Assembly (NCBI GenBank): GCA_041649715.1
Contig: JBAZMP010000003.1
Span: 36,155-100,154 of the forward strand
DNA: 64,000 nt
Source of the DNA: Patescibacteria group bacterium
GTDB taxonomy: Bacteria > Patescibacteriota > Patescibacteriia > JAXHNJ01
Direction of reading: 5' to 3'
Shown: piece after piece, positions 2,987 through 27,060 of the stretch
How the letters are laid out: every line of letters starts with the position of its first letter
How positions within the stretch are numbered: the first letter of the stretch is position 1
Notes under the pieces: model-generated
What the model saw: the letters and a program-made list of their open reading frames with translations, nothing else
Databases searched by the model: none
What the model was told of the DNA's origin: nothing
Position numbers and translations under genes: made by a program

Positions 2987-3508
2987 TTAATGACTTTTTT
3001 CCTGGATCGCCTTGAGGACATAAACCAGCTTGTTCAAATTTCCTTTTAAAGTATTCACTAAACCGGTCACCGGGCTCTTGATGACGTAAACCAGCTTGTA
3101 CAGTAATTCTTCTTTACTCGGCAGCTTCGCCATCGCCAAGACCTGCTCTTTCCCAATAAGCTTGTTTTCAAAAATACCGCCGACCAACTTAAGATTTTCG
3201 TGGATTTTGGCGAATTCATAACACAATTTAGCCGGCATGACCTCGTCTTCCAGGCCGAACGCCAAAGCAAAGCCGCTCGTCAGTTCATCTAAATTTATGT
3301 CCATCTTTTTTTCCTTGAGGGCTTTTTTCAAAAGGGTTTTTTTGGCGACGAAATATTCCACCTTATTCTCCCGCAATGTTTTTCTCAATAGATTTATTTC
3401 ATTGACCTTGAGCTTCTCATAATTAACGAAAACCAGGGCTTTCATCGCCTCTAAGTCTTTGGCTAATTTCTTTATTTCCAGTTCTTTTTCCTGGCGTGTT
3501 TTTGGCAT
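2987..3508 (-). CDS. rplJ: 50S ribosomal protein L10.
   Basis: MPKTRQEKELEIKKL... is a typical L10 N-terminus, located immediately upstream of rplL. The track ORF starts at TTG 3532, but ATG 3508 is preferred. Confidence 0.9.
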   Translation of the reverse strand: MPKTRQEKELEIKKLAKDLEAMKALVFVNYEKLKVNEINLLRKTLRENKVEYFVAKKTLLKKALKEKKMDINLDELTSGFALAFGLEDEVMPAKLCYEFAKIHENLKLVGGIFENKLIGKEQVLAMAKLPSKEELLYKLVYVIKSPVTGLVNTLKGNLNKLVYVLKAIQEKSH

Positions 3509-3700
3509 AAAAAAGAGGTCTTGACACCGCAAGACCTAGACAAGCATGGAAGTTTAACTTCACGCTTCTGCCTCGGTAGGAGATTAAGCCCCATTGGGGC
3601 GCCTACGGTCTGCGGCCTAAATAATTTGTTAACTTATCCACATTATAACAGAGCTAAAAATAATGTCAAATATCCAAAAAAGAAAGGGCGGTAAAAAACC
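3509..3700 (-). promoter_or_regulatory. Putative rplJ (L10) leader region with a terminator/attenuator-like hairpin (aggtcttg-cggtgt-caagacct followed by T6) directly abutting the start codon.
   Basis: An 8-bp stem plus cttttttATG on the minus strand at 3509..3539, with further GC-rich hairpins at 3545..3620. L10 leaders acting by attenuation are established in Firmicutes. No SD is visible. Confidence 0.35.
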
Positions 3701-12190: not shown

Positions 12191-12787
12191 ATGAAGACAA
12201 AATATTTAGAAGTTGAGGTTCTGCCTTTTTCTATTCTGCCGGAAAATAACCCGGGCTTCGCCATCCGGCATTTAAGCAAGGAGTACGATCCGACAAAGAA
12301 AAAAACCTTAAACTTGCAAAAAATATCGTTCTATTTATTCCGGACAACTTTTATATTATTGCTGGCTTTTTTCCCGCTTTTTTCTTTTGGGCAGATTACT
12401 TTCAAGCAGGAAATCATCAAACTCACCAATATTGAAAGAAACAGACAGCATCTTCCCCTCCTAACCGATAATCCCCTTTTAGACGCGGCCGCCTTGGCCA
12501 AAGCCAATGACATGATCGCTTTGAATTATTTCAGCCACACTTCGCCCTCTGGCCTTTCTCCCTGGAACTTCATCACCGAAAATGGCTACGAATATAAATT
12601 CGCCGGTGAAAACCTGGCTTTGGATTTTTCCGACCCCCAAAATGCGATGACCGCCTGGCTGCGTTCCCCGAGCCATCGCGACAATATCCTCGATCCGGAT
12701 TTCAAAGAAATCGGTGTGGCCGTGGTCAAGGGCACGGTAGAAAACCAAGAAACAGTCCTGGTCGTCCAATTTTTCGGCACGCGGTAA
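12191..12787 (+). CDS. CAP/SCP/PR-1 (YkwD-like) domain secreted protein.
   Basis: CAP domain motifs (NRQHLPLL, NYFSHTSPSG, GENLA, HRDNILDPDFKEIGVAVV). The N-terminal start is uncertain; a hydrophobic signal-like segment is present. Confidence 0.75.
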   Translation: MKTKYLEVEVLPFSILPENNPGFAIRHLSKEYDPTKKKTLNLQKISFYLFRTTFILLLAFFPLFSFGQITFKQEIIKLTNIERNRQHLPLLTDNPLLDAAALAKANDMIALNYFSHTSPSGLSPWNFITENGYEYKFAGENLALDFSDPQNAMTAWLRSPSHRDNILDPDFKEIGVAVVKGTVENQETVLVVQFFGTR

Positions 12788-12850: not shown

Positions 12851-12879
12851 TTGACAAATTAAAATTTATTCATTACAAT
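12851..12879 (+). promoter_or_regulatory. Sigma70-like promoter (TTGACA, 17 nt, TACAAT) for the type IV pilus operon.
   Basis: Consensus -35 and a good -10 at 17-nt spacing, about 75 nt upstream of the pilB ORF. Confidence 0.4.
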
Positions 12880-12953
12880 AAACACACTTAAAACACCAAA
12901 ATAAAAAACAAAAATAAACCCTGTGAAAGCGTTTATTTTTTAAGATAAAAAAG

Positions 12954-14714
12954 GTGGCCTTATTCTCTTTTACCCTAACCGACAATCCCTACCGCCGGTT
13001 GGGAAAAATGCTGGAAAAAGAAAAAATCCTCCCAAGGAACGATTTTAAAGAAATCTTTGAGCAATCTAAAAAGGAAAACCGGCCGTTTTTAGCCGTTCTT
13101 TGGGAAAAAGAAGGCCTGCCGGAAGATAAATTGAACCAAGCCTTGGCCCGCTATTTCCGATTACCTGAAGTGCGCTTGCGTGAAAAAACCATTGATCCCG
13201 AGGTTTTAAACCTTATCCCGAAGGAAATAGCCGAGCATGGTTCGATCGTTATCTTTAAAAAAATAAAGAACATCATCTACGTGGCCACGACCAACCCGGA
13301 AAATAAGTTGGTCTTTAATTTTATTAAGAAGAAAACCGGCCTTGACCCGAAAATTTTCATCACCTCCCCGGCTGACCTGAAACAGGCGATAAAAAAATAC
13401 AAAACGGAGATCGCCTCGGAATTTGAGAAAATAATCGACGACAGCATCAAACAGGTTCTCAGCTTGCACGAAAACACGGAAAAACTCGCCCAAGTCGTCC
13501 CGACGATTAAAATGGTTGATACCATAATCGAACAAGCTCTTTTGCAGAACGCTTCCGACATTCATATCGAACCGGTCGCCGAAAAAATAAGCGTGCGTTA
13601 CCGGATCGACGGCCTCCTGCAAAAAATAGTCACTCTCCCCAAACAAATACTCCCGACCGTTGTCACCCGCATAAAAATTCTCGCTAACCTAAAAATTGAC
13701 GAGCACCGCCTGCCTCAAGACGGACGTTTTAAATTCGAATTCAATGAACGGCCGGTCGCCATCCGCGTTTCGGTCATGCCCACCCTCAACGGGGCCAAAG
13801 TAGTTTTGAGACTTTTGGATGTCAAGGAAAAACAATTCAGCCTCCGACGCCTAGGACTGAATGTTAAGGATTTTGTCACGGTCAAGAAAGAAATGATCAA
13901 ACCCCACGGCTTGATCCTCGTGACCGGGCCGACCGGCAGCGGAAAAACAACCACTCTCTATGCAATTTTAAGGATGCTGAATAAAGAAGGCGTGAATATT
14001 TGCACGATTGAAGACCCGATTGAATACGGCCTGGAAGGGATCAATCAAACGCAGATCAATCCCAGCGCCGGCTTAACATTTGCCTCAGGTTTGCGTTCTC
14101 TCGTCCGCCAGGACCCGGACATCATCATGGTCGGCGAAATCCGTGACTTGGAAACGGCCGACATGGCGATCAATGCAGCGATGACCGGCCATCTGGTCTT
14201 ATCAACCCTGCACACCAATTCCGCATTTCTTGTCATCCAGCGCCTGATCGAAATGGGTATTAAGCCGTTTTTGGCCGCTTCCGTGATCAATGTCGTCATG
14301 GGTCAAAGACTGGTGAGAAAAATCTGCCGCTTCTGCAAATCGCAAAGAGGGTCAGCCGAAAAAATCCTGGCCCAATACGGTGGATATTTCGACCTGGAAA
14401 ATGCCCTGGCAAAATTTAAACGACTTAAACTGCTTCCCCCGGTCGGCTATAACTCCCTTTCCGAAATTAAATTTGCCCACGGCAAGGGCTGCCCGAAATG
14501 CCACGGCACCGGTTATTTGGGGCGCATCGGCATCTATGAAATACTGAAGAACAGCTCCCATATTTACCAGACGATATTAAAAGATCCGACGGCCAACGCC
14601 ATCAAAAATGAGGCCTTGAAACACGATATTCTGACCATGACCGAAGACGGTCTTTTAAAAGTGCTAAAAGGTCAAACAACGTTTGAAGAGGTTTTAAGAG
14701 TAACTAAAGAATAA
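12954..14714 (+). CDS. pilB: Type IV pilus assembly ATPase (GspE/PilB family).
   Basis: N-terminal GspII_E domain, Walker A (GPTGSGKTTTLYA), Asp/His boxes and a C-terminal zinc-binding tetracysteine (CPKCHGTGY). The start may be the internal ATG near 13008. Confidence 0.9.
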   Translation: MALFSFTLTDNPYRRLGKMLEKEKILPRNDFKEIFEQSKKENRPFLAVLWEKEGLPEDKLNQALARYFRLPEVRLREKTIDPEVLNLIPKEIAEHGSIVIFKKIKNIIYVATTNPENKLVFNFIKKKTGLDPKIFITSPADLKQAIKKYKTEIASEFEKIIDDSIKQVLSLHENTEKLAQVVPTIKMVDTIIEQALLQNASDIHIEPVAEKISVRYRIDGLLQKIVTLPKQILPTVVTRIKILANLKIDEHRLPQDGRFKFEFNERPVAIRVSVMPTLNGAKVVLRLLDVKEKQFSLRRLGLNVKDFVTVKKEMIKPHGLILVTGPTGSGKTTTLYAILRMLNKEGVNICTIEDPIEYGLEGINQTQINPSAGLTFASGLRSLVRQDPDIIMVGEIRDLETADMAINAAMTGHLVLSTLHTNSAFLVIQRLIEMGIKPFLAASVINVVMGQRLVRKICRFCKSQRGSAEKILAQYGGYFDLENALAKFKRLKLLPPVGYNSLSEIKFAHGKGCPKCHGTGYLGRIGIYEILKNSSHIYQTILKDPTANAIKNEALKHDILTMTEDGLLKVLKGQTTFEEVLRVTKE

Positions 14715-14715
14715 T

Positions 14716-15924
14716 ATGCCCATTTTTTCCTATACCGGCCTGGATAAAAACAATAATTACGTCAAAGCCACCCTGGAGACAGGTAATCTTAAAAAAGCGG
14801 CCCAACTCCTGGAAAAAGAAGGAGTGATACTCGTTAATATCCAAGAAGAAAGAACCCTCAAAAAAACCCTAACCGAACGGCTATTTAACAACGTTACCCG
14901 CCTGGACAAGATCTTTTTCACGCGTCATCTTTCCACCATGCTGGAATCCGGCATTGCTTTGGACCAAGCGATAAAAATCATTGCCGAGCAGACAACCAAT
15001 AAAACCTTTAAAACCACCCTATACGACATCTATAAACGCCTGCAGGGCGGCGAATCATTATTCGAATGTTTGGCCGCGCACCCGAAATATTTTTCCAAAT
15101 TTTACATCAATATCATCCGGGTCGGCGAAAAAAGCGGAAAATTAGACGAAGTTCTGGCCCAGCTTCTGGAGCAGCAGGAAAGCGACTACGAGCTTATTAA
15201 CCGCGCCCGCGGCGCCATGGTTTATCCGGCGGTGATCATCAGCGCTCTTATTGTCATGGTCGTCTTTATGATGACTTTCGTCATTCCGAAGGTCACCAGC
15301 GTTTTGAGCGAATACCACGTCAAGCTGCCGCTGGCTACCCGCATCCTGATCGGCTTGAGCAATTTTATCCTTCATTACGGCTATTATGTTTTTCCCGCCT
15401 TGATTGTTTTGGTCTATCTCTTCTTAAGATGGATAAAAAGCAAAAAGGGCAAAAAACGCTGGGATGCTTTCCTCCTGAAAATCCCGCATTTAAAAAAGAT
15501 CATGGCGGAATTCAATCTTGCCCGCTTTGCCCGATCGATGAGCGCCCTGATGAAAAGTGGGGTGCCGATAGACGAATCCCTGGCTTTGGCGGCCGATGTA
15601 TCCTCTAACACTTTTTACGCCGAATCATTGGCTTCCGGCATCCAGTTTGTCCGCAAAGGAATACCCTTGGCTGAGATTTTAAAAGGCCACCCGAAGCTTT
15701 ATCCCCCTATCACCGTTCGCATGATCGAGGTGGGCGAAAAAACCGGCAAGCTCGACCACATGCTTTCCCGCCTGGCCACTTTTTACGAAAAATCCGTGCT
15801 CAATACGATTGCCAACCTCGCTTCGGTCATCGAGCCGGTTCTCCTGCTCTGCATCGGCCTGGCCGTGGCCTTTGTCGCCATTTCCGTCCTGACCCCCATT
15901 TGGAAATTTTCCGAAACCGTATAA
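14716..15924 (+). CDS. pilC: Type IV pilus platform protein (GspF/PilC family).
   Basis: Duplicated T2SSF domain architecture with 3 TM segments. Immediately follows pilB. Confidence 0.9.
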   Translation: MPIFSYTGLDKNNNYVKATLETGNLKKAAQLLEKEGVILVNIQEERTLKKTLTERLFNNVTRLDKIFFTRHLSTMLESGIALDQAIKIIAEQTTNKTFKTTLYDIYKRLQGGESLFECLAAHPKYFSKFYINIIRVGEKSGKLDEVLAQLLEQQESDYELINRARGAMVYPAVIISALIVMVVFMMTFVIPKVTSVLSEYHVKLPLATRILIGLSNFILHYGYYVFPALIVLVYLFLRWIKSKKGKKRWDAFLLKIPHLKKIMAEFNLARFARSMSALMKSGVPIDESLALAADVSSNTFYAESLASGIQFVRKGIPLAEILKGHPKLYPPITVRMIEVGEKTGKLDHMLSRLATFYEKSVLNTIANLASVIEPVLLLCIGLAVAFVAISVLTPIWKFSETV

Positions 15925-15947
15925 TTAATTAATTTTTTTATAATTTT

Positions 15948-16403
15948 ATGTCACATCTTAAAAAAGGTTTTACTCTCGTCGAAGCGCTCTCGGTGATCGG
16001 CGTTCTTGCCGTCCTGACGGCCATGGCGGTCCCGTCCTACGCCTCGATGAGAAAAAACGTGGTCTTCGGCAATACATTTCAAGAAATAGCCAGTGCCTTA
16101 AGAATGGCCCAGAATAATTCGATGACCGCTCAAGACGGCAATATGTGGGGGGTTAAATTTAATAATGACAGTTATATTATGCTGGAATGTAATGATGAAA
16201 ATTGTTCAAGCCCCTCGAATACAGACACCTATCCGGTCAGCGGCCTAAAAATAATCACGCCGGCCACAAATCCTATTATTTTTAACCGCCTATCAGGCAC
16301 TCTTTACGGGGCCGCGGTCTCCCAAACAATCGCCGTTGAGAATGAGGCGGGATCAAGTGTAAAGAATATCTTCGTTGAACCAAATGGAAAAATTTCCCCA
16401 TAA
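15948..16403 (+). CDS. Type IV (pseudo)pilin with a prepilin N-methylation motif.
   Basis: KKGFTLVEALSVIGVLAVL class III signal peptide with conserved Glu+5. Confidence 0.8.
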   Translation: MSHLKKGFTLVEALSVIGVLAVLTAMAVPSYASMRKNVVFGNTFQEIASALRMAQNNSMTAQDGNMWGVKFNNDSYIMLECNDENCSSPSNTDTYPVSGLKIITPATNPIIFNRLSGTLYGAAVSQTIAVENEAGSSVKNIFVEPNGKISP

Positions 16404-16848
16404 AAATATGCGGAATTCGTTTTCAATAAAAAATAAAGGCTTTTCCGTCGTTGAGATTTTGGTCGCCGTCAGTATGGCCGGTATTATGATCGTTTCCATA
16501 GGCGGTGCCCTGAATTCTATCCATAAATTGAACGCCAGGAGCGAAATAAATGAAAAAGCGATCGCCTACGCGAAACAAACCCTGGAATTAGTCACCGATT
16601 TGAAAAATCATGATTTTGACGCGGATTTATCCAGCGTCGACAGTCTCGCCCTGGAAACCGGGTTTACACGGCCAAGCCCCGCCGTGACCGTGACTCCTCT
16701 TTGCCGTGACGGCAACGGGAACATAATGTCCGCCTGCGGCGCGAGCGTGCCAGACGGCAAAACCGAAAAAGTAACGGTCATTATCCAGTATTCGGGAACG
16801 GAAAAAGCTAAATTATCGACTATTTTTACTGATTGGCGAATTCCATGA
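16375..16848 (+). CDS. Minor pilin-like protein (prepilin-type N-terminal domain).
   Basis: NKGFSVVEILVAVSMAGIMIV prepilin motif. The true start is probably internal (around 16408). Confidence 0.65.
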   Translation: MNQMEKFPHKNMRNSFSIKNKGFSVVEILVAVSMAGIMIVSIGGALNSIHKLNARSEINEKAIAYAKQTLELVTDLKNHDFDADLSSVDSLALETGFTRPSPAVTVTPLCRDGNGNIMSACGASVPDGKTEKVTVIIQYSGTEKAKLSTIFTDWRIP

Positions 16849-17366
16849 AAAAAGTATTCAAAAAAAATAACAAGGGATTCACCCTGATTGAGCTTCTAAT
16901 ATACATGGGCATTTCCACGATTATTGTCGTTGTTTTGACCAGCTTTATGGCTGATGTGTTAAAGAATGCGGCCAAGACAAAAATAACAAAAGAGGTGCAG
17001 CAGAATGCCAGATTTATTACGGCAAAAATTACCCAAGAAATAAGAAACGCCCAAAGTATTAATATCGATACTTTTGACCTTACCTTGAATAATAAAACTC
17101 TATTTTCCTTAAAAGACGACGGCGTCTATTACGATGATGATGTCAGCGACGCTGATCCGGCTTTAAAACTCACGAGCAACCAGGTTAAAATCAACCGAGA
17201 TGCTGACCCAAACGATCCTACGCAATATAATTCACAATTCAAGCCTGTCTCGGGCACAGTTTTTATCAAATTAACGGTGGAACAAGCCAGCCCCAATGCG
17301 AGAAGATCCGAGAGCAGCCAAATCACCCTTTCTTCAGCGGCTGTCCCAAGGGCCTCACTCTATTAA
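16833..17366 (+). CDS. Minor pilin-like protein (prepilin-type N-terminal domain).
   Basis: NKGFTLIELLIYMGISTIIVVVL prepilin motif. Confidence 0.7.
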   Translation: MANSMKKVFKKNNKGFTLIELLIYMGISTIIVVVLTSFMADVLKNAAKTKITKEVQQNARFITAKITQEIRNAQSINIDTFDLTLNNKTLFSLKDDGVYYDDDVSDADPALKLTSNQVKINRDADPNDPTQYNSQFKPVSGTVFIKLTVEQASPNARRSESSQITLSSAAVPRASLY

Positions 17367-17379
17367 ATACTTATTTGGC

Positions 17380-18843
17380 ATGAATATAAGGATATATAAA
17401 AATCAAAGAGGTGTCGTCGCCATTCTTACCTTATTGGCGGTTTCGGTTTTGGCTTTATTAATTATGACCACGATGAGCGTGCTGGCGGCGGATGAATTAA
17501 AAATGTCAATCTCAGAAAGAAATACGGAGAAAACCTTTTACGCGGCTGAGACCGGAATAAACGAGGCGTTGTATCGATTAAGCAAGGATGGTCTTCCCGC
17601 TAATTTTTGTTTATCCTTTGACGGAACTGCTATACCCTGTGCGAATTCCGAAAAAATTGAAGTGAGTTTTTCACTTGATCCAAATAATCCCTATAATCGC
17701 ATTATCAACTCACGAGCCCAAGATATCACCGGCAAAGAAAGAACTTTAAGTTTTACGGCCCAAACGAACAGTTATGCCGCCGGCTTGGATTTTGCCGTTC
17801 ATACTGGAACTGGCGGATTGGAAATGGAGAATAATACAAGGGTTTACGGAAACATTCACAGCAACGGGAATATCTACGGCAGTACCGGTGGCACACCAAA
17901 AAGCGAAATTTACGGAGACATTAAAGTTTCGGGCATAACCACTAATTTGGTCCAAACTTTTTCCTATGATCTACGTTATGCCGACAACACTCTTTTTAAA
18001 CACCTTAACGGAAATCTCCATGCTCATGAAATTGTTGATTCAAAAATCAGCGGCGACGCGTGCTACCAAATTATCAACTCCTCCACGGTTAGCGGTTCAT
18101 CAGAAGTATACGGCTCTAATCCCAATTGTATCAGTGATCCTGCTCCCGCTACTTTTCCCATTACTGATCCTCAAATAGAAAATTGGACAAATGAAATTAA
18201 AGACCATGTAAATGAGGCTATATTAAATGGAACGGGACAATTATTCCCAACAAATAAAACGGTAAATACCTCCGAAACTTGGGGTCCGACCAAGGTAAAC
18301 GGCAATCTAATTATTCAAGGCAGCCCCCAGGGAGTAAATAAGCTAGTTATGAATGATAATCTGTGGGTGATAGGAAATTTAGAAATACAAAATAACGGTC
18401 AGCTCACTTTATTCAAAAATATCTTGGTCAGCGGCAACATAATATTTTACCAAAACTCCACCATCAATCTTGACCCAAGCGTGGGTGAAAACGACGGTTT
18501 AATAATCGTTAATGGAAAAACTGAAATAAAAAACGTGGTTAGCATAAACGGATCAGGGAATAGTAAAAGTTCACTTATGTTAATTTCTACCAACAACTCT
18601 TTGGATACCGATAATCCAGCTATACTCGCTAACAATGTTTCTAATGGTGTTTTATACTATGCGAAAGACGGAAAAATAACCATTGATCAAAACGGCGATT
18701 TATGCGGCACTATTGCCCACACTATCCATTTGAAAAATGGGGCAACTGTTAGATATAAGCCAGACAAACAGATACTGGATATACCACCAAACGATGATAA
18801 TTATACTTTTGGTCCTGTGTCTGGTTCCTGGCAGGAAAAATAG
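17380..18843 (+). CDS. PilX-like large pilus-associated protein (N-terminal TM/pilin-like helix, beta-rich C-terminal region).
   Basis: MNIRIYKNQRGVVAILTLLAVSVLALLIMT resembles PilX N-terminal domains. It is the last gene of the pilus operon. The track ORF begins earlier, at 17296. Confidence 0.5.
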   Translation: MNIRIYKNQRGVVAILTLLAVSVLALLIMTTMSVLAADELKMSISERNTEKTFYAAETGINEALYRLSKDGLPANFCLSFDGTAIPCANSEKIEVSFSLDPNNPYNRIINSRAQDITGKERTLSFTAQTNSYAAGLDFAVHTGTGGLEMENNTRVYGNIHSNGNIYGSTGGTPKSEIYGDIKVSGITTNLVQTFSYDLRYADNTLFKHLNGNLHAHEIVDSKISGDACYQIINSSTVSGSSEVYGSNPNCISDPAPATFPITDPQIENWTNEIKDHVNEAILNGTGQLFPTNKTVNTSETWGPTKVNGNLIIQGSPQGVNKLVMNDNLWVIGNLEIQNNGQLTLFKNILVSGNIIFYQNSTINLDPSVGENDGLIIVNGKTEIKNVVSINGSGNSKSSLMLISTNNSLDTDNPAILANNVSNGVLYYAKDGKITIDQNGDLCGTIAHTIHLKNGATVRYKPDKQILDIPPNDDNYTFGPVSGSWQEK

Positions 18844-18916
18844 TTATCCACACCCCACTATTTTCGATTTTTCCTGTTTCCCAATCCCCTATTTTCATCC
18901 TCAAAATTACCCTCAA

Positions 18917-18950
18917 AAAATCGCCTTCCGCATGGGCGGTTTTTTAGAAA
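18917..18950 (+). terminator. Probable terminator of the pilus operon (ccgc-atgg-gcgg hairpin plus T6).
   Basis: Short GC stem followed by ttttttag, 75 nt after the stop at 18843. Confidence 0.3.
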
Positions 18951-19114
18951 AAATATCACCTCTTATTATCTCGACCAGGGGGAATTAAAGACGGCGCCCT
19001 TCTGGCCGAGGGTCAAAATTGGCTAATCGGGGTTATCCACATCCTCTTTCTCGGTCATAATATTTTTACTAATTTCAGCCAAAAGACCCAAAACGGCCAG
19101 ATTCCTTTTGCCCC

Positions 19115-19143
19115 TTGACAAAACTTGAAAAATGGTCTAAGAT
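19115..19143 (+). promoter_or_regulatory. Possible sigma70 promoter (TTGACA, 17 nt, TAAGAT) upstream of the adhesin gene.
   Basis: Perfect -35 and a moderate -10. It implies a long 5' UTR of about 270 nt. Confidence 0.25.
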
Positions 19144-19423
19144 AATATAAATTATACACATCGTTCTTTCACGCTTTTAAAGGAGGAAAGACAATATCGT
19201 TCTTTACGAAACATGATTGCACCTTAGAAAACCTTAGGAGGAAGGTTAGCTAAAACCAACAAAAAGTAGTAAAAAAGTAAAAACTCGAAAAAATCTAATT
19301 CATTTAAGGAAGTTCACTTAATTTGAGGTATTAAAAGGTTTTTATTGCTTTATGTTGGTTTTTTATTTAAAAAATTTAGATATATAGTATTTAAGTAAAA
19401 TTATTAAACGAGGAGATAAAAAA

Positions 19424-22400
19424 ATGACTAAAATCAATCTTATGCCGAAAAAATCCTGGAAGACAAAAGCCTTCAAAGCTTTAAGTATTGTTGCCCAGGT
19501 GACTTTAATTTTCCAGATGTCCTATTTGGGCGTCTTTTTCGCCCCGAAAACCGCGGAAGCGGCCGCCACCAGTCTTACCACGAACATCCTTTCGTGGCAT
19601 ATCCTTGGCGTGGACAGCAACAGCCCCGTGACTGACGGGCCGCATAAATTCCTTATCCAAGCCCGAATCGCCAATACCGGCGCTCTTCCGGCCACCGGCG
19701 TGCAAACAAATTTCGCTTTCGGCTCCGGGACGGCCAACGCCTATCTCAGTTTGGTTTCAAACGCCGCTTTTCCTTTGAACACTATCAATTCAGGCGCTCA
19801 TAAAGATGTCTTTTATGTCGTGCAAGTAACACCGCCGGCCACGCCGAACTCTCCGAGCAATCCGGTTTTTGATACCAGCCGACCTTTCACCATCACCGCT
19901 ACCTCTCCGGATTCAAGCAACGCTTCGGCCAGCCAGACCTTATACATCGAGCACATCCTTTCCCAGAGCAGAAATCACATTTTATCCTCAACTGTCATAC
20001 CGGCTAATCCCTTGGTCGGCCAGCCTTTCACTGTTCACGTGGAATATGAAACCGCCAGCACTTACTTGGACATCACGCCCCAGATGACCTACAATCCGGC
20101 GGTCGCCACTCTTGATTCCGTTACCACCCATTACGTGACAGACGGCGTGGATGAAAATGATATCTATTCCCAGGATCACGGCAATATTATCCATTCTGAT
20201 TTTCATTTCCGCGCCCAGAGCGCCGGCACGTTGAGTTTTTATTACACCGTTCTTGATCACTCCGGTTCCAGTTTCCATTATAACGACGATTTCAGCGACG
20301 CGATCATTGTCCCGGTGACCCCGCGGCAGAACCTGGAAAAATCCGTGGATAAAGCGACGGCCACGCCGGGTGAAACTATCACTTACACCTTGAAGTATTT
20401 CAACACAGGCAACATCGACCTGACCAATGTGGTCATCACTGATACCTACGACAGTCATTTTACTTTTACTTCCTCTAACCCTGCCCCGAGCGTCGGCAAC
20501 AACGTCTGGAATATCGGCACTCTGCCGGTGGCCGCGGGCGGAACGATCACCATCACGGGCACCCTGACCGGAGTTTTTCCGGCGGGCACGACTAAAGTGC
20601 ATAACTTGGCCGTCATGACCTCTGACCAGGTCGCGCCTGTTCAAGCGACGGCTGACACCACGGTCACGGCGGTCTGCGATTTAAACATAATCAAATCCGT
20701 CGATAAGGCGACGGCTTCAGTCGGTGACACTCTTACCTATACCCTCCGATACGAAAATACCGGCAACACGAAATGCACCGGCACCGGCGTCAAAGTTTAT
20801 GATCCGCTGGATACCTATCTGACCTATGTGACCGGTTCAAAACACATCACCATCACCAATGACGGCGGAAATTTAGGGACTGAACCCGGCCAAGGCGACG
20901 ATTATAACGGCAAAGCTAATATCCTGCTTTATAACGTCCGCGAAGTTGTCTCGGGTGAATACGGCGTCATTACCTTTCAAGCGACGGTAAATACTCCGAC
21001 GGTCTGCGGCGATTTTCAGATCCCCAACAAAGGCAAGATCTGGAGCAATGAAACCGCTTATATCTGGAGCAACGAAGTGAAAACCGATATCCACATGGAC
21101 TGCTACGGTTCGGTATCGGGCTATAAATTCAACGATTTAGACAAAGATGACAATAATAAAGAAACAGGCGAACCTGGATTACCGGACTGGGAAATTTGTC
21201 TTCTTAACGTAAATACTAAGGCGGAAGTTTGCACCACGACTGATGCGAACGGCTACTATAAATTCACCAGTGTTCCGTTTGGCAGTTATCAACTCTACGA
21301 AAAGCAGCAAACCGGCTGGACTCAAAGTTATCCCCTGGAAATTACAAATCCTGGCCAAGATTATAATTTCACTCTTGCCAGCCCCGTTGATCTGACCGGC
21401 AAGAATTTTGGCAATTACCGCAACAGCGGCAATTTAACGCTGGTAAAAGAAGTCATCAATAACAATGGCGGTACGGCCGTGGCTACAAACTGGACATTGA
21501 GCGCCACCGGCCCTACTCCAATTTCTGGAGCCGGAGGGGTTTCCGGTACGGTCATAGCGGGTACCTACGCCCTTTCTGAATCCGCAGGTCCTGCTGGCTA
21601 CCAGGCCAGCGCCTGGAATTGTATCGGCGGTAGCCAAACAGGCAACGACGTCACAATCAATGACGGGGATTCAGCCACCTGCAAGATTACCAATGACGAT
21701 ATCCAGCCGAAATTGACCGTGACCAAAATCGTGGTCAATGACAACGGCGGCACGGCGGTTATCGCTGACTTTCCTTTGTTTGTTAACGCAACGAGCGTTA
21801 CCTCCGGAGTACAAAACGGCTTTAACGCCGGCGCTTACACTGTTTCCGAAACGAATAAAAACGGCTATACCGGAGCAATCACCGGCGACTGCGCGGCTAA
21901 CGGTTCCGTCACTTTAAATGCCGGGGACGTAAAAACCTGCACCATCACCAATGACGATATTTCTGGCAAGATCTCAGGTTATAAACTCGACGATCAAGGG
22001 AACAAGCTTAACGGCTGGGAAATCTGTTATACGAAGCAAGATCTAATTTTACCCGACCAATTATCAGTCCAGATAACTCAGCCGATCTGCGTGCTTACGG
22101 GTGATGGCGACTGGCCAGATGGTTATTATGAATTTACCGGCTTATATGTTGGCGATTATGTGGTGTTTGAAAACTTGCTGTATGGTTGGACGCAACTTGA
22201 ACCACAAGGCGGAGTCCATAATATAACAGTCCAATCAGGAACTGACTCAAAAGACAATAACTTCGTCAACAGACTGAACGACTTCAATGTTGAAATCGTA
22301 AAATCCGCTCCCGCCACTGTAAATGCCGGAGAAAATCTGACCTATACCCTGGACTGGACTGTGACAGGCAATACTCCTGTTAATAACGTTATTATTTCTG

Positions 22401-23869
22401 ATGTTCTGCCGGCGAATACGACCTATGTTTCTGGCGGCGACAACTACGATTCTGCCACCAACACCGTTTCTTGGAACCTCGGCACCGTCAATCCGACGGA
22501 TAACGGTACGGTCTCCTTCACGGTCAAGGTCAACTCCCCGCTCTACAACGGCACGATAATCGATAATGAAGCGGAAATCTGCGGCGAAGCCCAGTTAGTG
22601 GCGGCCACTTTCGCTCTCCAGGCGCCGACACAGAAATGCGACGACGACGACACGTCGACTACGGTAAAATCTGGATTCAACGTCGACGTTGATAAAGACG
22701 GACCGCTGACCGGCAAACCCGGAGAGCAGATTGATTACACCGTCGTCTGGAGCACTTCTGGCAACTCCCCTATTGATAAATTAGTCATTACGGATAACTT
22801 ACCGGCTGACACCACCTTTGTTTCCGCAAGCAATGGCGGCGCGGAAAACAATGGCGTCATCACCTGGGATCTTGGTCCTCAAACCCCGGGCGTACACGGT
22901 ACCTTCACGGTTACTGTCACCCTGAACTCCAACTTGAATCCTGGCAACCAGGTAACCAACGAATCCGAGATCTGCGCTTGGGTGTTTGAAGCGCCAAGCG
23001 GAGAATTGATGGTCTGCGATAAAGACGACACCACTACTCTGATCAAGAAACCGATCCTCGCTATTGAAAAAACAGTTGACCTGGTCTTTGCCAATCCGGG
23101 CAATGTGGCCACCTATACGGTGACCATCACCAATACGGGCAACGAAACCGCTTATAATGTCGTGCTCACCGATACCTTGCCGGCTGGCTTCACCTTTGTG
23201 GAAAACGGCCTTGATACTAAATCCTGGTCCTTAGGCGACCTTGTGCCGGCTGACAGCGTCACCGTAAACTATGAAGTTACGGTCGGCAAAAATGTCACGG
23301 CTGGCTTTTACGACAACTTTGCGGAAGCCAAAGCCGACAACCACGGCAAAATCCACGATATCGCCAGTTTAGAGGTGAGGATTCCGAAAAAACAGTCCTC
23401 GGAAGCCTATCCTATTCTCACGATCGGAAAGAGCGTGGACAAAGCCACGGTCAATCCCAACACCCTCGTCAATTACACCGTGAAAATCGCCAATAAAGGC
23501 GAAGCGACCGCTTATAACGTAATCCTCACCGATAAGTTGCCGGCTGGCTTCACCTTCACGGATACGGGCTTGGGCCAAAAGACCTGGAATCTTGGCAACA
23601 TGACCCCCGGCACCTCCATTACCCTAAATTACGAAGTTTTAGTCGGTAAGGACGTCAAGTCGGGCGATTATAAAAACCTGGCCACGGTGAAAGCGGATAA
23701 TAATGATCCAGTCAGCGCTTCAGTAAACGTCAATGTCAAGCAAGGTGCCGTCTTGGGTCTGACCGGACCTAAATGGTATGAAATCTTCTATTATCTCTTG
23801 GGCCTGTTATTTGTCGCCGGTGGCATCAAAGCCTACCGCAAAATAAACCAGACAGGAGAGACTCGATAA
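19424..23869 (+). CDS. Giant (1481 aa) surface adhesin with multiple DUF11 ('conserved repeat domain') and CnaB/SdrD-B-like modules and a C-terminal cell-wall sorting signal.
   Basis: Signal/TM N-terminus and many DUF11-type repeats (e.g. ITYTLKYFNTGNIDLTNVVITDTYD, ATYTVTITNTGNETAYNVVLTDTLPAGFTF). The C-terminus is VLGLTG + hydrophobic helix + KAYRK. Strong RBS (GAGGAG). Confidence 0.8.
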   Translation: MTKINLMPKKSWKTKAFKALSIVAQVTLIFQMSYLGVFFAPKTAEAAATSLTTNILSWHILGVDSNSPVTDGPHKFLIQARIANTGALPATGVQTNFAFGSGTANAYLSLVSNAAFPLNTINSGAHKDVFYVVQVTPPATPNSPSNPVFDTSRPFTITATSPDSSNASASQTLYIEHILSQSRNHILSSTVIPANPLVGQPFTVHVEYETASTYLDITPQMTYNPAVATLDSVTTHYVTDGVDENDIYSQDHGNIIHSDFHFRAQSAGTLSFYYTVLDHSGSSFHYNDDFSDAIIVPVTPRQNLEKSVDKATATPGETITYTLKYFNTGNIDLTNVVITDTYDSHFTFTSSNPAPSVGNNVWNIGTLPVAAGGTITITGTLTGVFPAGTTKVHNLAVMTSDQVAPVQATADTTVTAVCDLNIIKSVDKATASVGDTLTYTLRYENTGNTKCTGTGVKVYDPLDTYLTYVTGSKHITITNDGGNLGTEPGQGDDYNGKANILLYNVREVVSGEYGVITFQATVNTPTVCGDFQIPNKGKIWSNETAYIWSNEVKTDIHMDCYGSVSGYKFNDLDKDDNNKETGEPGLPDWEICLLNVNTKAEVCTTTDANGYYKFTSVPFGSYQLYEKQQTGWTQSYPLEITNPGQDYNFTLASPVDLTGKNFGNYRNSGNLTLVKEVINNNGGTAVATNWTLSATGPTPISGAGGVSGTVIAGTYALSESAGPAGYQASAWNCIGGSQTGNDVTINDGDSATCKITNDDIQPKLTVTKIVVNDNGGTAVIADFPLFVNATSVTSGVQNGFNAGAYTVSETNKNGYTGAITGDCAANGSVTLNAGDVKTCTITNDDISGKISGYKLDDQGNKLNGWEICYTKQDLILPDQLSVQITQPICVLTGDGDWPDGYYEFTGLYVGDYVVFENLLYGWTQLEPQGGVHNITVQSGTDSKDNNFVNRLNDFNVEIVKSAPATVNAGENLTYTLDWTVTGNTPVNNVIISDVLPANTTYVSGGDNYDSATNTVSWNLGTVNPTDNGTVSFTVKVNSPLYNGTIIDNEAEICGEAQLVAATFALQAPTQKCDDDDTSTTVKSGFNVDVDKDGPLTGKPGEQIDYTVVWSTSGNSPIDKLVITDNLPADTTFVSASNGGAENNGVITWDLGPQTPGVHGTFTVTVTLNSNLNPGNQVTNESEICAWVFEAPSGELMVCDKDDTTTLIKKPILAIEKTVDLVFANPGNVATYTVTITNTGNETAYNVVLTDTLPAGFTFVENGLDTKSWSLGDLVPADSVTVNYEVTVGKNVTAGFYDNFAEAKADNHGKIHDIASLEVRIPKKQSSEAYPILTIGKSVDKATVNPNTLVNYTVKIANKGEATAYNVILTDKLPAGFTFTDTGLGQKTWNLGNMTPGTSITLNYEVLVGKDVKSGDYKNLATVKADNNDPVSASVNVNVKQGAVLGLTGPKWYEIFYYLLGLLFVAGGIKAYRKINQTGETR

Positions 23870-23873
23870 ATCC

Positions 23874-24566
23874 ATGGAAAAACCAGTGGAAAAAACTCCC
23901 GCCGAAAGCGATCCCCGCATTCGGCGGGAGAAAGGTAAATACAGATACTTGAAAATCGGGATAATAATTATTATCCTGGCGGGTATCGGAATTCTGGCCT
24001 ATCCTTTCATCCCCTCCTTAAAGTATGCTTTGAGCAAACCGGGCAATACCTACCCTTACGAAACGAGGTTGCTTTCAGGCAACATAAATCTTGAGGCCCT
24101 GCCGGTGAATAAAAATGTGAATCTTGGCTCTCTGCCGGATATCAAGACCTTAAAAAGAATTCCCGACGATAATCGGCTGGTCATCCCTAAAATCGGCGTG
24201 GATGTCGCTATCGTGGAAGGACAAAACGAAGAAACGGCCTTGCTTAAAGGCGCCTGGCGCAACCCGAAAACTTCCAACCCGGAAAATGGCGGCAATACGG
24301 TCATTTCGGGCCATCGGTTTCGCTTTCGGCCGCCGAATAACACCACCTTTTATCTTTTGGATAAACTGGCGGTCGGCGATACTTTCATCATTTACTGGAA
24401 AGGGGTAGAATACGATTATCAGATTTCGGAAACAAAGATTGTCGCTCCGACGGCAGTAGAAATACTTAATAACACGGCGAACTCCCAAGTAACCCTGTTC
24501 TCATGCACTCCCCTCTTTACCACCAGACAAAGGCTGGTGGTGATCGGACAGCTGGTTGAATGGTAA
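23874..24566 (+). CDS. Sortase family transpeptidase.
   Basis: N-terminal TM anchor, catalytic His (TVISGHR), TLFSCTP (TLxTC) active-site Cys motif and a downstream Arg. It starts 5 nt after the adhesin stop. Confidence 0.85.
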   Translation: MEKPVEKTPAESDPRIRREKGKYRYLKIGIIIIILAGIGILAYPFIPSLKYALSKPGNTYPYETRLLSGNINLEALPVNKNVNLGSLPDIKTLKRIPDDNRLVIPKIGVDVAIVEGQNEETALLKGAWRNPKTSNPENGGNTVISGHRFRFRPPNNTTFYLLDKLAVGDTFIIYWKGVEYDYQISETKIVAPTAVEILNNTANSQVTLFSCTPLFTTRQRLVVIGQLVEW

Positions 24567-24590
24567 ATTAATATTTAAATAGACAAAAAA

Positions 24591-25610
24591 ATGAAAAAAT
24601 TAATGCTGGCCATTACGCTTCTTGCTTTGGCGCTTTCGCCCATAAAGGGAGAGGCTAAAAATCACGGGGGCGTCGCCTCAATCGAAATTTCGCCTGTTAA
24701 CGGCGAAGTGAAGGCGGGAGAGAGTCTGACCCTAAGGCTTACCGCCAAAGACAGCGCCGGTCTGACTTGGGACATCTCGCCAAACGCTTATTTCCAAATC
24801 AATGACCCCCGCGGTTCCCTCAAGAATAATAAATATCTGGCCGGCAAAATCGGCACCTGGAATTTAAGCGTGACCTATGGTAATTTCAGCGCGAAGACAA
24901 CCGTCAAGGTACTGCCAGGCAACCTTGCCACTATCATCATAAATCCGAATTCAAAACCTGAAATCATCGATTTGGGAGCGACCAGAACTTTTAACGCCCA
25001 GGGTTTTGATAAGATGAATAACCTTTTGACAGGCTTGCTTTTTACCTGGTCACAGGAAGATGACTTAGGTGATATCAACCAAAAAGGCGTTTTTACCGCC
25101 AAAGACACCGGCGAGGGAAAAATAATCGCGAGCCTTAACGGTGTTTCCGGCTTCTCGGCCATAAAAGTCAAAGAAAAAACATTGTTGCCGGCGGCCGCGA
25201 ATACAACCAACACCAATACCGCCAGACCAACAACGGCCGTGAATACCAACGCCAATGATAATAATAACAGCAATGTCAACGGCCAGGTCGCCGGAGTGGA
25301 GACAGCCGCGGCCGCGGAAACGACGGAGACAAAAGATGAATGTAAAACGCTCGCCTGGTACTGGTGGGTTTTGATCATGCTCGCGTTTTTCGCCGTTTTG
25401 ATCCTCTATTACTTTTTAATCCGCAAATCAAAAGGCGGCTGGTGGTGGATTTTCCCGCTGATTTTAATAGCCGGCGTAGTCTGGCTCTATTACCAGTACT
25501 CCTGCAACAAATACGGCTGGTGGCCCTGGGTTTCCATCATTATGGCCATACTAATCTCACTTTTCCGGCCAAAGAAGTATTTTGAAGAGCCAAAATCTCC
25601 GACTTTCTAA
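24591..25610 (+). CDS. Secreted Big_2 (bacterial Ig-like) domain protein with a Trp-rich C-terminal double TM anchor.
   Basis: Signal peptide, two Ig-like repeats (IEISPVNGEVKAGESLTL..., IIINPNSKPEIIDLGATRTFNAQGFD...), an Asn/Thr-rich linker and two C-terminal TM helices. Confidence 0.6.
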   Translation: MKKLMLAITLLALALSPIKGEAKNHGGVASIEISPVNGEVKAGESLTLRLTAKDSAGLTWDISPNAYFQINDPRGSLKNNKYLAGKIGTWNLSVTYGNFSAKTTVKVLPGNLATIIINPNSKPEIIDLGATRTFNAQGFDKMNNLLTGLLFTWSQEDDLGDINQKGVFTAKDTGEGKIIASLNGVSGFSAIKVKEKTLLPAAANTTNTNTARPTTAVNTNANDNNNSNVNGQVAGVETAAAAETTETKDECKTLAWYWWVLIMLAFFAVLILYYFLIRKSKGGWWWIFPLILIAGVVWLYYQYSCNKYGWWPWVSIIMAILISLFRPKKYFEEPKSPTF

Positions 25611-25636
25611 ATATCATCAAATCTAAAAATACAAGA

Positions 25637-25668
25637 AAAACCTCTTCCTTTTGGAAAGAGGTTTTTCG
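25637..25668 (+). terminator. Intrinsic terminator (aacctcttcc-tttt-ggaaagaggtt followed by tttc).
   Basis: 10-bp stem and T-run, 27 nt after the stop at 25610. Confidence 0.55.
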
Positions 25669-25803: not shown

Positions 25804-26619
25804 TTAGAAGATTAGAAAATATACAATCACGATTATCGCCAGGACTAACCGGTAATAGGCAAAAATATTTAGCGAGTGATTTTTTAAATAATTCAAAAGA
25901 AATCTGACCGCCCAGTAGCCGGCCAAGGCGGCGGCCAAAAATCCTAAGAGATAAATAATCATCTCATGACCGCTGAAAGAATGGGAAAATAGTTCCGTCA
26001 TCTTTTTCACCACCGCCCCGAAAATCACCGGGATAGAAAGCAAAAAGGAAAATCTCGCCGCTTCCTCCCTTTTCAATTTCTGGGTCATACCGGCCAAGAT
26101 GGTTATCCCGGAACGGGATACACCGGGTATTAAAGCGATGGCCTGGCACAAACCGATGATAATCGCCCCGTTTAAACCCATCTCTTTCAATCCTTTTGTC
26201 TTTTGGCTGTATTTTTCCAAAATCAGGAATAGAAGACCGACGAGAATCATCATGACTGCCACTAAAAATGGCGAGCGGAAAATCGTCTCGGCTTTATCTT
26301 CGAGTAAAAAACCGAATATACCGGCGGGAATGGCGGCCACTAAAATAAACCAGGCTAACCGCTGATTTTCGTCATTTTTTAAGTCCCACTTGACCAAGCT
26401 TTTGAAAAATGCGGACAAATAGGCTATAATATCCTTAGAGAAAAAAACCACCAGGGCCAAGAGGGTGCCGGCATGCAAGATCACGTCAAAGCTCAAGTCA
26501 TCCTGCAGCCGGAAATTTAGCAAGCGATGCAGAATGACCAAATGGCCGGAACTCGAGATAGGCAAAAACTCCGTCAGCCCCTGAATGCCTCCGAAAAAGA
26601 TTGAGTAAATATAGTCCAT
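25804..26619 (-). CDS. uppP: Undecaprenyl-diphosphatase (BacA/UppP).
   Basis: GLTEFLPISSSGHL and GVSRSG motifs; 8-TM architecture. Confidence 0.85.
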   Translation of the reverse strand: MDYIYSIFFGGIQGLTEFLPISSSGHLVILHRLLNFRLQDDLSFDVILHAGTLLALVVFFSKDIIAYLSAFFKSLVKWDLKNDENQRLAWFILVAAIPAGIFGFLLEDKAETIFRSPFLVAVMMILVGLLFLILEKYSQKTKGLKEMGLNGAIIIGLCQAIALIPGVSRSGITILAGMTQKLKREEAARFSFLLSIPVIFGAVVKKMTELFSHSFSGHEMIIYLLGFLAAALAGYWAVRFLLNYLKNHSLNIFAYYRLVLAIIVIVYFLIF

Positions 26620-26622
26620 AAA

Positions 26623-27060
26623 ATGATATATCCTAAATTAATACTTATTCCTTTGATCGTCGGCCTGATCAGTTTCGGCCTGAAGATCATTATTAAAGCG
26701 ATCAAGGGCACTTTTTCTTGGGAACTGTCGGCCACTTACGGCGGCATGCCCTCCATCCACACCGCCTTTGTCGTTTCTCTCTCTACCGTCGTAGCGCTCT
26801 ACGACGGGATTTTCAGCGCCACTTTCGCCATGTCTGCCATCTTCAGCCTGATTATCATCCGGGACGCCGTGGGTTACCGCCGTTACCTGGGGATCCATTC
26901 AAAAGTCTTAAACAGCGTCATCCAGGAATTACCCCACAAAGAGCGAGTAAAATTTCCGCCCCACCTCCAGGAACAGCTGGGCCACACGCCCTTACAGGCG
27001 GTGATCGGCGCCCTCATCGGTTTTATCGCGGCTATTCTTCTTTATATCATTATTCCTTGA
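26623..27060 (+). CDS. Divergent PAP2-family membrane protein (DUF212, acid phosphatase/vanadium-haloperoxidase-related).
   Basis: GGMPSIHTAFV and GYRRYLG motifs typical of DUF212. Confidence 0.6.
   Translation: MIYPKLILIPLIVGLISFGLKIIIKAIKGTFSWELSATYGGMPSIHTAFVVSLSTVVALYDGIFSATFAMSAIFSLIIIRDAVGYRRYLGIHSKVLNSVIQELPHKERVKFPPHLQEQLGHTPLQAVIGALIGFIAAILLYIIIP

Follow-up and report, generated by a model that had tools for sequence, protein, structure and literature searches.

We analysed a 64,000-nucleotide stretch of DNA from a Patescibacteria group bacterium (assembly GCA_041649715.1, contig JBAZMP010000003.1, positions 36,155 to 100,154 of the forward strand), hereafter the window, in which a type IV pilus gene cassette is followed on the same strand by genes for a giant fibrillar adhesin and a sortase. 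The same DNA is held at ENA as a 235-kb metagenome contig (ERZ27247363, k141_1414341). Related loci that were compared with the window are given L-numbers (L002, L005, L011 and so on). The pilus cassette consists of six genes, all on the plus strand and separated by -4 to 23 nt, which agrees with the co-directional block described by an earlier interpretation made from the letters and translations alone (the sequence-only reading). A sigma-70-type promoter precedes the cassette (12851–12879, plus strand; TTGACA-17-TACAAT); it matches the consensus at 11 of 12 positions and is joint best in a 15-kb scan, so the near-consensus promoter that had been placed at 12851 holds. TTGACA boxes are found at the equivalent position upstream of pilB in L011 and L002. 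The first gene (12954–14714) starts with GTG and encodes a PilB-type assembly ATPase of 586 amino acids, comprising a T2SSE domain (Pfam, E 1e-127) and an N-terminal MshEN domain (1e-9). This protein is the sole member of the T2SSE family in the window and scores 535 bits against TIGR02538, which is a family-level match under the equivalog cut-off of 675. Control by cyclic di-GMP through the MshEN domain was considered and set aside, the RLGxx...Q motif being degenerate by eye. The second gene (14716–15924) encodes a PilC/GspF platform protein (Pfam T2SSF, 1e-58, in two stretches), which scores 343 bits against the GspF model TIGR02120, likewise under its cut-off.

Three small prepilin genes and one large pilin gene complete the cassette. 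Prepilin 1 (15948–16403, 151 amino acids, G↓FTLVE, the arrow marking cleavage), prepilin 2 (16408–16848, 146 amino acids, G↓FSVVE) and prepilin 3 (16845–17366, 173 amino acids, G↓FTLIE) all match the N_methyl family (1e-7 for prepilin 3), and theirs are the only cleavage motifs of the form G↓F(T/S)xxE returned by a motif scan of the window. Prepilins 2 and 3 are minor pilins, the former with a ComGE-like N-terminus and the latter with an N-terminus resembling HpsC, ComGF and GspJ (NCBIfam). Prepilin 1 lies directly after pilC, where ComG-type operons place the major pilin, and the sequence-only reading had given it that label. Its best NCBIfam match, however, is the minor pseudopilin family GspH (2.7e-8, with GspG and ComGC at about 1e-3), and its orthologue in L055 gives a weak Pfam GspH match. 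Judged by these matches, prepilin 1 appears GspH/FimU-like and a major-pilin role is doubtful, while the other labels, two minor pilins and a PilX-like gene, stand. The PilX-like gene (17380–18843) encodes a large PilX/GspK-type pilin of 487 amino acids with a weak PilX_N match (E 0.0022); its cleavage site reads G↓VVAIL and has no Glu5. Scanning the open reading frames (ORFs) of the 64-kb window returned no Peptidase_A24 or DiS_P_DiS match for the prepilin peptidase PilD and no member of the PilT or PilM/N/O families, which bears out the absences reported before.

The AlphaFold2 model of the large pilin, built with 16 homologues (predicted local distance difference test 83, predicted template modelling score 0.79), consists of an N-terminal helix (residues 9–67), a pilin sheet and a beta-solenoid that extends to residue 480. 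The best solved structure retrieved with Foldseek is ComZ (6qvi; E 6e-7, probability 1.0, template modelling score about 0.2), followed by ice-binding-protein solenoids and then by the C-terminal domain of a tapirin (E 3e-3). When a profile of the 16 homologues was searched against all PDB sequences, no ComZ match was obtained at E <= 1, and the likeness seen in the model is at the level of the fold only. ComZ is reported to combine a GspK-like pilin domain with a solenoid resembling ice-binding proteins and to fit only at the pilus tip (PMC6561018). A ComZ-like beta-solenoid would be too bulky elsewhere in a filament, and we regard the large pilin as a ComZ-like candidate tip protein. Isoelectric points are low (4.3–5.2) for this pilin and for each of its close homologues, and the three small pilins are acidic too. 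The large pilin is also the faster-evolving component, with 34–52% identity among relatives in which PilB retains 60–84%. Given the GspH-like prepilin 1 and the ComZ-like large pilin, the cassette resembles a motor and platform joined to a priming and tip set, and its four pilin genes look like a set of the GspH/I/J/K type.

The pilus cassette is separated from the adhesin gene by a gap of 580 bp (18844–19423). An intrinsic terminator-like hairpin followed by a U-run (18913–18945, plus strand; free energy -14.7 kcal/mol, z -3.8), which a simple terminator scan overlooked, closes the cassette, and a different hairpin with a U-run occupies the same place after the large pilin of L011. Further downstream lies the promoter of the adhesin operon (19115–19143, plus strand; TTGACA-17-TAAGAT). 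The sequence-only reading had likewise noted one promoter-like and one terminator-like signal between the two blocks. Alignment of the gap covered five genomes and shows a near-identical promoter, CTTGACAAA...TAAGAT, upstream of the adhesin; the element is nearly the same in L011, L005 and L009, L012 has a TTGACA box at the same place, and the adhesins of L051, L052 and L053 are preceded by a similar CTTGACAAA-N14-TAAG(A/G/T)T. The gap additionally contains two exact TTATCCACA boxes on the plus strand (18844–18852 and 19033–19041). The second of these precedes the adhesin promoter and is invariant across the whole alignment, and in several lineages that keep the two blocks adjacent a TTATCCACA box sits right at the stop codon of the PilX-like gene. 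This exact sequence, the DnaA-box consensus, occurs five times in the window against 0.48 expected, at 3634, 18844, 19033, 43886 (minus strand) and 61418, in each case between genes; at 18844 and 61418 the match continues to TTATCCACACCCC. A replication origin was considered for these boxes and rejected, because the cumulative GC skew declines nearly monotonically along the window and does not change direction around 19 kb; no dnaA gene was found among the ORFs scanned in the window.

Between the promoter and the adhesin start codon lies a conserved non-coding leader of about 275 nt (19150–19423, plus strand), recognised by its conservation at the DNA level and by a minimum free energy z score of -2.7. 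It forms a long A/U-rich hairpin (19254–19360) followed by a U-run, and RNAalifold predicts a 23-bp stem with a few two-sided changes. The leader is present in L011 (11783–12163), L005 (3854–4278), L012 (11594–12016) and L009 (6673–7292); in relatives it includes a second hairpin (CCCGCUGA...AGCGGGA), which is deleted in the window. No known RNA or riboswitch was matched in Rfam, either across the whole window at gathering thresholds or in the gap at E <= 5, and an nhmmer search that covered the window and 55 loci gave no additional copies ahead of other surface genes. The leader may act as an attenuator or give rise to a small RNA. L005 keeps the TTATCCACA box, the promoter and the leader without any pilus genes upstream, where signal-peptidase-like, LamG and dockerin genes are found instead. 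Because a terminator follows the large pilin and the adhesin promoter and leader are kept even in L005, the sequence signals point to separate transcription units for the pilus and adhesin blocks.

The adhesin (19424–23869, plus strand) and the sortase (23874–24566, plus strand) come next on the same strand, as had been described, and the block does not end at 24566 as stated, since the operon runs one gene further (24591–25610) to a terminator at 25635–25667. The adhesin has 1481 amino acids and matches Pfam DUF11 in 6 stretches (5e-72), DUF7507 in 4 and SpaA_2 in 2. From its N- to its C-terminus it comprises a signal peptide, an N-terminal domain, a stalk of CLIPPER/DUF11, SdrD_B/SpaA and SpaA_2 domains, and a sorting signal; CLIPPER is the new name of DUF11, a stalk domain with isopeptide bonds that is characteristic of fibrillar adhesins (10.1101/2025.04.25.650565). 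The signal peptide is common to relatives. The N-terminal domain of about 240 residues (residues ~48–290, window 19565–20290) is matched in none of the related loci. Relatives keep the signal peptide, but the domain that follows it is another one and contains Cys, which suggests that the tip domain of the adhesin has been swapped. The C-terminus (...VLGLTGPKWYEIFYYLLGLLFVAGGIKAYRK...) contains VLGLTG, a hydrophobic transmembrane segment and the basic tail KAYRK. Adhesins of relatives end in the same layout with LGITG (L005 and L006) or with LAATG, LAETG, LATTG, LSDTG, LPETG or LVATG (others), so that LGLTG can be taken as a variant LxxTG signal. Sortase-anchored CLIPPER/SpaA adhesins (10.1101/2025.04.25.650565) share this architecture of signal peptide, distal non-repeat domain, CLIPPER/CnaB-like stalk and LxxTG, transmembrane segment and basic tail.

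The sortase is membrane-anchored (Pfam Sortase, 1e-24), carries its His, Cys and Arg motifs in the translation (ISGHR, TLFSCTP and RQR) and is encoded next to the adhesin, as in Gram-positive pairings. It passes only TIGR01076 (76 bits against a cut-off of 39). The NCBIfam class models are all missed (class C 82 of 160 bits, D 62 of 165, E 62 of 160, GN 37 of 158), and the class A and B models gave no match at E <= 0.01; the protein fits no NCBIfam sortase class model. NCBI labels of the sortases in relatives are inconsistent, reading class D or class E. Its nearest solved structures belong to class C (E ~1e-13), and a pilus-polymerising class C enzyme was nevertheless rejected, the class score being half of the cut-off and the DP(W/F/Y) lid motif being absent from the translation. 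The third gene of the operon encodes p339, a membrane protein of 339 amino acids without a Pfam or NCBIfam family, which comprises a signal peptide, an ectodomain of about 200 residues, a Thr/Asn-rich linker and a Trp-rich C-terminus with several transmembrane segments. Homologues stand directly after the sortase in L005 (10642–11664) and L006 (1669–2673), with 60–68% identity, and in L051 (10642–11730) and L052 (10653–11690), with 33–34%; in L007/L008 the homologue (27%) is the second gene after the sortase, and the gene after the sortase of L053 has no detectable similarity to p339. p339 may be a sortase partner. Compared with known sortase-adhesin pairs, the locus differs in that the sortase reaches no class cut-off, the sorting motif is LGLTG, a Trp-rich membrane protein is included and the conserved leader is long. 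A strong two-way terminator hairpin (25635–25667; 14-bp stem, free energy -19.5 kcal/mol, z -5.4) lies between this operon and the convergent bacA gene.

Two other window proteins are likely sortase substrates, a dockerin-domain protein (61662–62996, minus strand) that ends in LPKAG, a transmembrane segment and KK, and a small DUF11 protein (63186–63860, minus strand) that ends in LPQAG, a transmembrane segment and RK. They are encoded about 37 kb from the sortase, and with such proteins in the window the sortase is probably not dedicated to the adhesin locus. Genes related to the undecaprenyl carrier surround the sortase operon (25804–27060, 40488–42509 and 52050–52739) and encode BacA, a DUF212 PAP2-like phosphatase, a polyprenyl synthase fusion and UppS; a bacA and/or DUF212 gene also adjoins the sortase unit in most relatives.

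To what extent the two blocks belong together can be judged from the related loci. The six-gene order pilB, pilC, three small prepilins and large pilin is kept in L011 (PilB identity 84%), L009 (70%), L055 (61%), L012/13 (60%), L003 (Kerfeldbacteria, 59%) and L002 (57%), with looser versions in distant metagenome loci, and the pilus cassette is a conserved unit in its own right. L009 has an IS200-type transposase gene (Y1_Tnp, 3128–3634) inserted between prepilins 1 and 2. The entry for L002 (CAYVOI010000001.1, 876 kb) reads 'uncultured Gammaproteobacteria', yet the contig carries genes typical of the candidate phyla radiation (CPR), namely DUF5671 and the cassette, and is probably mislabelled. 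In L011, L009 and L012/13 the large pilin is likewise followed, across a gap of about 600–720 bp, by a giant adhesin homologue on the same strand, and each of these ORFs is truncated by a contig end. Orthologous cassettes without an adhesin or sortase downstream are found in L002 (followed by a PaaX/Cas2-like gene and a collagen-repeat gene), L003 (DUF1761 and a Mur ligase) and L055 (a giant multicopper-oxidase-like gene, unrelated and in opposite orientation). Likewise, no sortase or adhesin match was obtained in the 2–7 kb downstream of six distant cassettes (L022, L025, L026, L039, L040 and L043), the sortase search using a hidden Markov model of 120 sortases. The metagenome scan with a PilC alignment yielded mostly distant cassettes (31–40% identity) and short contigs and serves as a negative control only.

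The adhesin block, for its part, is organised as one or more adhesins, the sortase and the next gene, then bacA and/or DUF212, in L005, L006, L007/8, L051, L052 and L053. Four of these loci (L005, L051, L052 and L053) have no pilus cassette upstream: in L005, L051 and L053 the upstream framework (CAP or NTP-transferase/PCMT) runs straight into the adhesin, and L052 has only more CLIPPER proteins there. Since each block is found without the other, the pilus-adhesin pair is not an obligate genetic unit. The distribution of the cassette is patchy at two levels of relatedness. At the near level, L011/L006 (housekeeping identity 75–90%) have the cassette and the equally close L005 (79–85%) lacks it; at a deeper level, L012 (47–64%) has it and L053 (41–63%) does not. 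A search of 5.8 billion proteins for a PilB orthologue of the L005 lineage found none above 64% identity except that of L011, and the 64% match comes from another assembly; no relocated copy is therefore seen for L005. Wherever the two blocks are neighbours, the surrounding gene order matches that of the window for tens of kb (>20 kb), so that the adjacency can be explained by inheritance alone; as read from gene order, it is probably synteny inherited within one clade. The coordinated attachment module proposed by the sequence-only reading is thus borne out in part. The adjacency is real and recurs in three further lineages, but it is not general, the arrangement being split or absent in other loci, and the signals in the gap argue for separate units and not for a single transcription unit. 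Each of the two outcomes that the sequence-only reading had named as refuting it, lack of conservation in relatives and independent expression of the blocks, is thus supported in part, the second by sequence signals.

Taken together, we favour the reading, with a probability of about 0.65, that the locus comprises two autonomous neighbouring cell-surface operons of known kinds whose synteny is maintained at the level of a clade. Operon 1 (12851–18945) would be a minimal type IV filament cassette. PilB and PilC would polymerise prepilins after processing by a PilD encoded elsewhere, building a thin filament with the GspH/I/J-like pilins as primer and the solenoid pilin as cap; the main fibre subunit would be either prepilin 1 or the product of a gene beyond the window. 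The solenoid would serve as the binding surface of the filament, and its ligand is likelier to be a host or a surface than DNA. Operon 2 (19115–25667) would express the adhesin, the sortase and the membrane protein under its own promoter and structured leader. The adhesin would be secreted by the Sec pathway, and the sortase, following established sortase chemistry, would cleave it at LGLTG and link it to cell-wall precursors, leaving a wall-fixed, long, isopeptide-stabilised stalk with a lineage-specific tip. Cooperation of the pilus and the adhesin in attachment is plausible, although neither gene order nor co-transcription gives evidence of it; any cooperation, with long-range contact by the pilus followed by close-range action of the covalently anchored adhesin, would stem from the location of both at the cell surface.

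Several points weigh against two autonomous operons. The order of cassette, long gap and DUF11 giant is kept in four lineages, with PilB identity down to 60%. The TTATCCACA box at the PilX-like stop codon in several of them makes shared regulation possible, and read-through of the modest terminator at 18913–18945 is also possible. Furthermore, no sequence overlap joins the contigs of L011 to L006 or of L009 to L007/8; these links, on which the presence of a sortase behind the giant gene of L011 and L009 depends, are inferences from a common sample, similar GC content and matching identity levels.

The most credible alternative, a serious rival that we still consider unlikely, is that the cassette encodes a DNA-uptake (competence) pilus, with the ComZ-like tip and the three small pilins as DNA receptor, ComEC encoded elsewhere, a function in supplying nucleotides to a cell of poor biosynthetic capacity and the adhesin as an incidental neighbour. 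It draws on the Foldseek result, as the large pilin has the Thermus competence pilin ComZ as its best structural match and ice-binding-protein solenoids as its secondary match, which is the same as reported for ComZ (PMC6561018), and on the proposal that CPR bacteria take up DNA by type IV pili (PMC7143001). The competence locus of Thermus thermophilus holds pilA1-4 and comZ (PMC6561018; PDB 6qvi). Thermus and the window have in common small minor pilins together with a pilin of about 500 residues that combines a GspK-like domain with a triangular beta-solenoid and is without the usual prepilin features. The succession of three small pilins and a large one in the window mirrors part of the Thermus locus. 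In gene order the cassette is likewise similar to the ComG operon of Bacillus and Streptococcus, in which the ATPase and the platform are followed by a run of prepilins with the larger one last, in a compact arrangement without PilM/N/O or PilT. The scores of 257 bits for ComGA and 151 bits for ComGB, however, are both under their cut-offs, the window PilB is full length (586 amino acids, with MshEN) where ComGA is short, and the cassette has four pilins where ComG has five.

The similarity to Thermus has limits as well. The template modelling score to ComZ is low and there is no similarity at the sequence level; the window pilins are joined in one cassette with pilB and pilC, unlike those of Thermus; and the window host is a monoderm-like CPR bacterium, whereas Thermus is diderm. 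The large and small pilins are acidic and have no electropositive character overall, which is an indirect hint against DNA binding. The fast evolution of the large pilin fits adaptation to a host or ligand better than DNA binding, and the genes comEC, comEA and dprA were not found in the window.

A parallel is found in the same superphylum, in the T4P-1 and T4P-2 systems of the saccharibacterium TM7x (Nanosynbacter lyticus; PMC11623550). Like the window, TM7x has PilB, PilC, several divergent pilins and a large pilin that carries an accessory domain and no canonical PilD signal, which is proposed to be a tip adhesin and promotes host binding; T4P-2 mutants kept competence and lost host binding, which speaks against a DNA-uptake role by analogy. 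The differences are that TM7x locus one carries PilT, PilM/N/O and PilD, which the window lacks, and that the large TM7x pilins have jelly-roll or beta-propeller domains where the large pilin of the window has a beta-solenoid. The pilus genes of TM7x are spread across a number of loci. The window bacterium would similarly encode PilD, and perhaps its principal fibre subunit, at another site, and PilT and PilM/N/O may likewise lie elsewhere in its genome. Overall, the acidic solenoid pilins, their faster divergence than the motor proteins and the host binding by the large TM7x pilin make a host or surface ligand more likely than DNA. In a targeted text search of the TM7x paper (PMC11623550), sortase was mentioned once and no link to a sortase-anchored adhesin was returned.

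That the blocks form a coordinated attachment module, held together by selection, acting in sequence on the same host and co-regulated, for instance through the shared gap, seems to us rather improbable. The recurrence of the adjacency in L011, L009 and L012/13 supports such a module, and so does the gap, which is unusually conserved and has TTATCCACA both where the PilX-like gene stops and ahead of the adhesin promoter. A model in which pili act first and close-range adhesins next has been proposed for Saccharibacteria (PMC11623550). In Caldicellulosiruptor, tapirin adhesins are encoded beside a type IV pilus locus (10.1101/359786), so that this organism and the window share a gene for a non-pilin surface adhesin next to pilus genes in a monoderm. 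Tapirins, however, bind cellulose and are not sortase substrates of the kind represented by the window adhesin; the solenoid of the window is part of a pilin, and its neighbouring adhesin is a CLIPPER stalk protein, unlike a tapirin. The module is further weakened by the collinearity of the adjacency-keeping lineages over >20 kb, with which the order may just be inherited, by the separation of the blocks in L005, L051, L052, L053, L002, L003 and L055, by the persistence of the adhesin promoter and leader without pilus genes, and by the terminator that ends the cassette.

In its strongest form, which we would call a long shot, the locus would be a selected two-stage host-capture unit in one Patescibacteria clade. 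The conserved gap, with its DnaA-box-like TTATCCACA sites and a new structured leader or attenuator RNA of ~275–600 nt depending on the relative, would tie display of the adhesin to pilus expression or the cell cycle, and the rapidly evolving solenoid tip pilin and the swapped adhesin domain would jointly set the host range. Finally, a type II-secretion-like pseudopilus, made of the ATPase, the platform and GspH/I/J/K-like pseudopilins, that helps to drive the adhesin, or other large proteins of the cell surface, across the wall or S-layer would explain the linkage, and it is in keeping with the best scores of PilC against GspF and of prepilin 1 against GspH, with the cassette having no obvious major pilin or PilT and with large secreted proteins flanking such cassettes in the window and L002, but we judge it highly implausible, because the adhesin has an ordinary signal peptide and sortase signal, the adhesin-sortase unit is cassette-free in four loci, a secretin and GspC/L/M were not found, CPR bacteria are thought to have no outer membrane (PMC7143001) and PilB is matched marginally better by the type IVa PilB model than by that of GspE.

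Other features of the window and its relatives were recorded alongside the two operons. A membrane-anchored CAP/SCP-domain protein (window 12191–12787) is kept just upstream of the first surface block, whether pilus or adhesin; it is encoded at 4649–5245 in L011, 148–744 in L005, 6200–6694 in L053, 3382–4068 in L055 and 8494–9831 in L002, and in L007/L008 a CAP-domain protein is encoded after the sortase instead. The Kerfeldbacteria relative L052 encodes a T2SSE protein of 349 amino acids, the size of PilT, about 5 kb downstream of its adhesin-sortase unit (15096–16145, minus strand), and no full pilus cassette lies within 10 kb of this gene. An ORF of 1243 amino acids (window 53400–57131, plus strand), which belongs to no Pfam family and shows neither an obvious signal peptide nor a sorting signal, is located where the AT skew along the window is most positive. 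The remaining neighbours fit a small CPR genome and include the L10 leader, L10, YceG, a sugar-nucleotidyl transferase, PCMT, BacA, Fpg, GcpE, ABC-2 transporters, LiaF/PspC proteins and DUF5667, together with many family-less ORFs.

The components of the locus are of known kinds, namely CPR type IV pili, CLIPPER fibrillar adhesins and sortase anchoring, and in the literature searched we found no report of a pilus/sortase-adhesin linkage in Patescibacteria. This linkage is clade-limited and separable. More originality lies in the side findings, which comprise a leader kept among relatives, the excess of TTATCCACA copies, a sortase lineage accompanied by a membrane protein, and a pilus cassette that is either present or absent at a fixed site. 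CPR bacteria, or Patescibacteria, are believed to spend their lives attached to other microbes. For the recognition and holding of such hosts the locus unites several candidate components: a solenoid-tipped pilus, a very long wall-anchored stalk adhesin with a lineage-specific tip domain and a sortase lineage outside the usual classes. As the blocks are separable, the pilus and the adhesin are to be handled as independent variables and not as one machine. For cultivable relatives, the adhesin leader RNA, the LxxTG-type motifs of the sortase lineage and the presence or absence of the cassette at one chromosomal site offer leads to follow.

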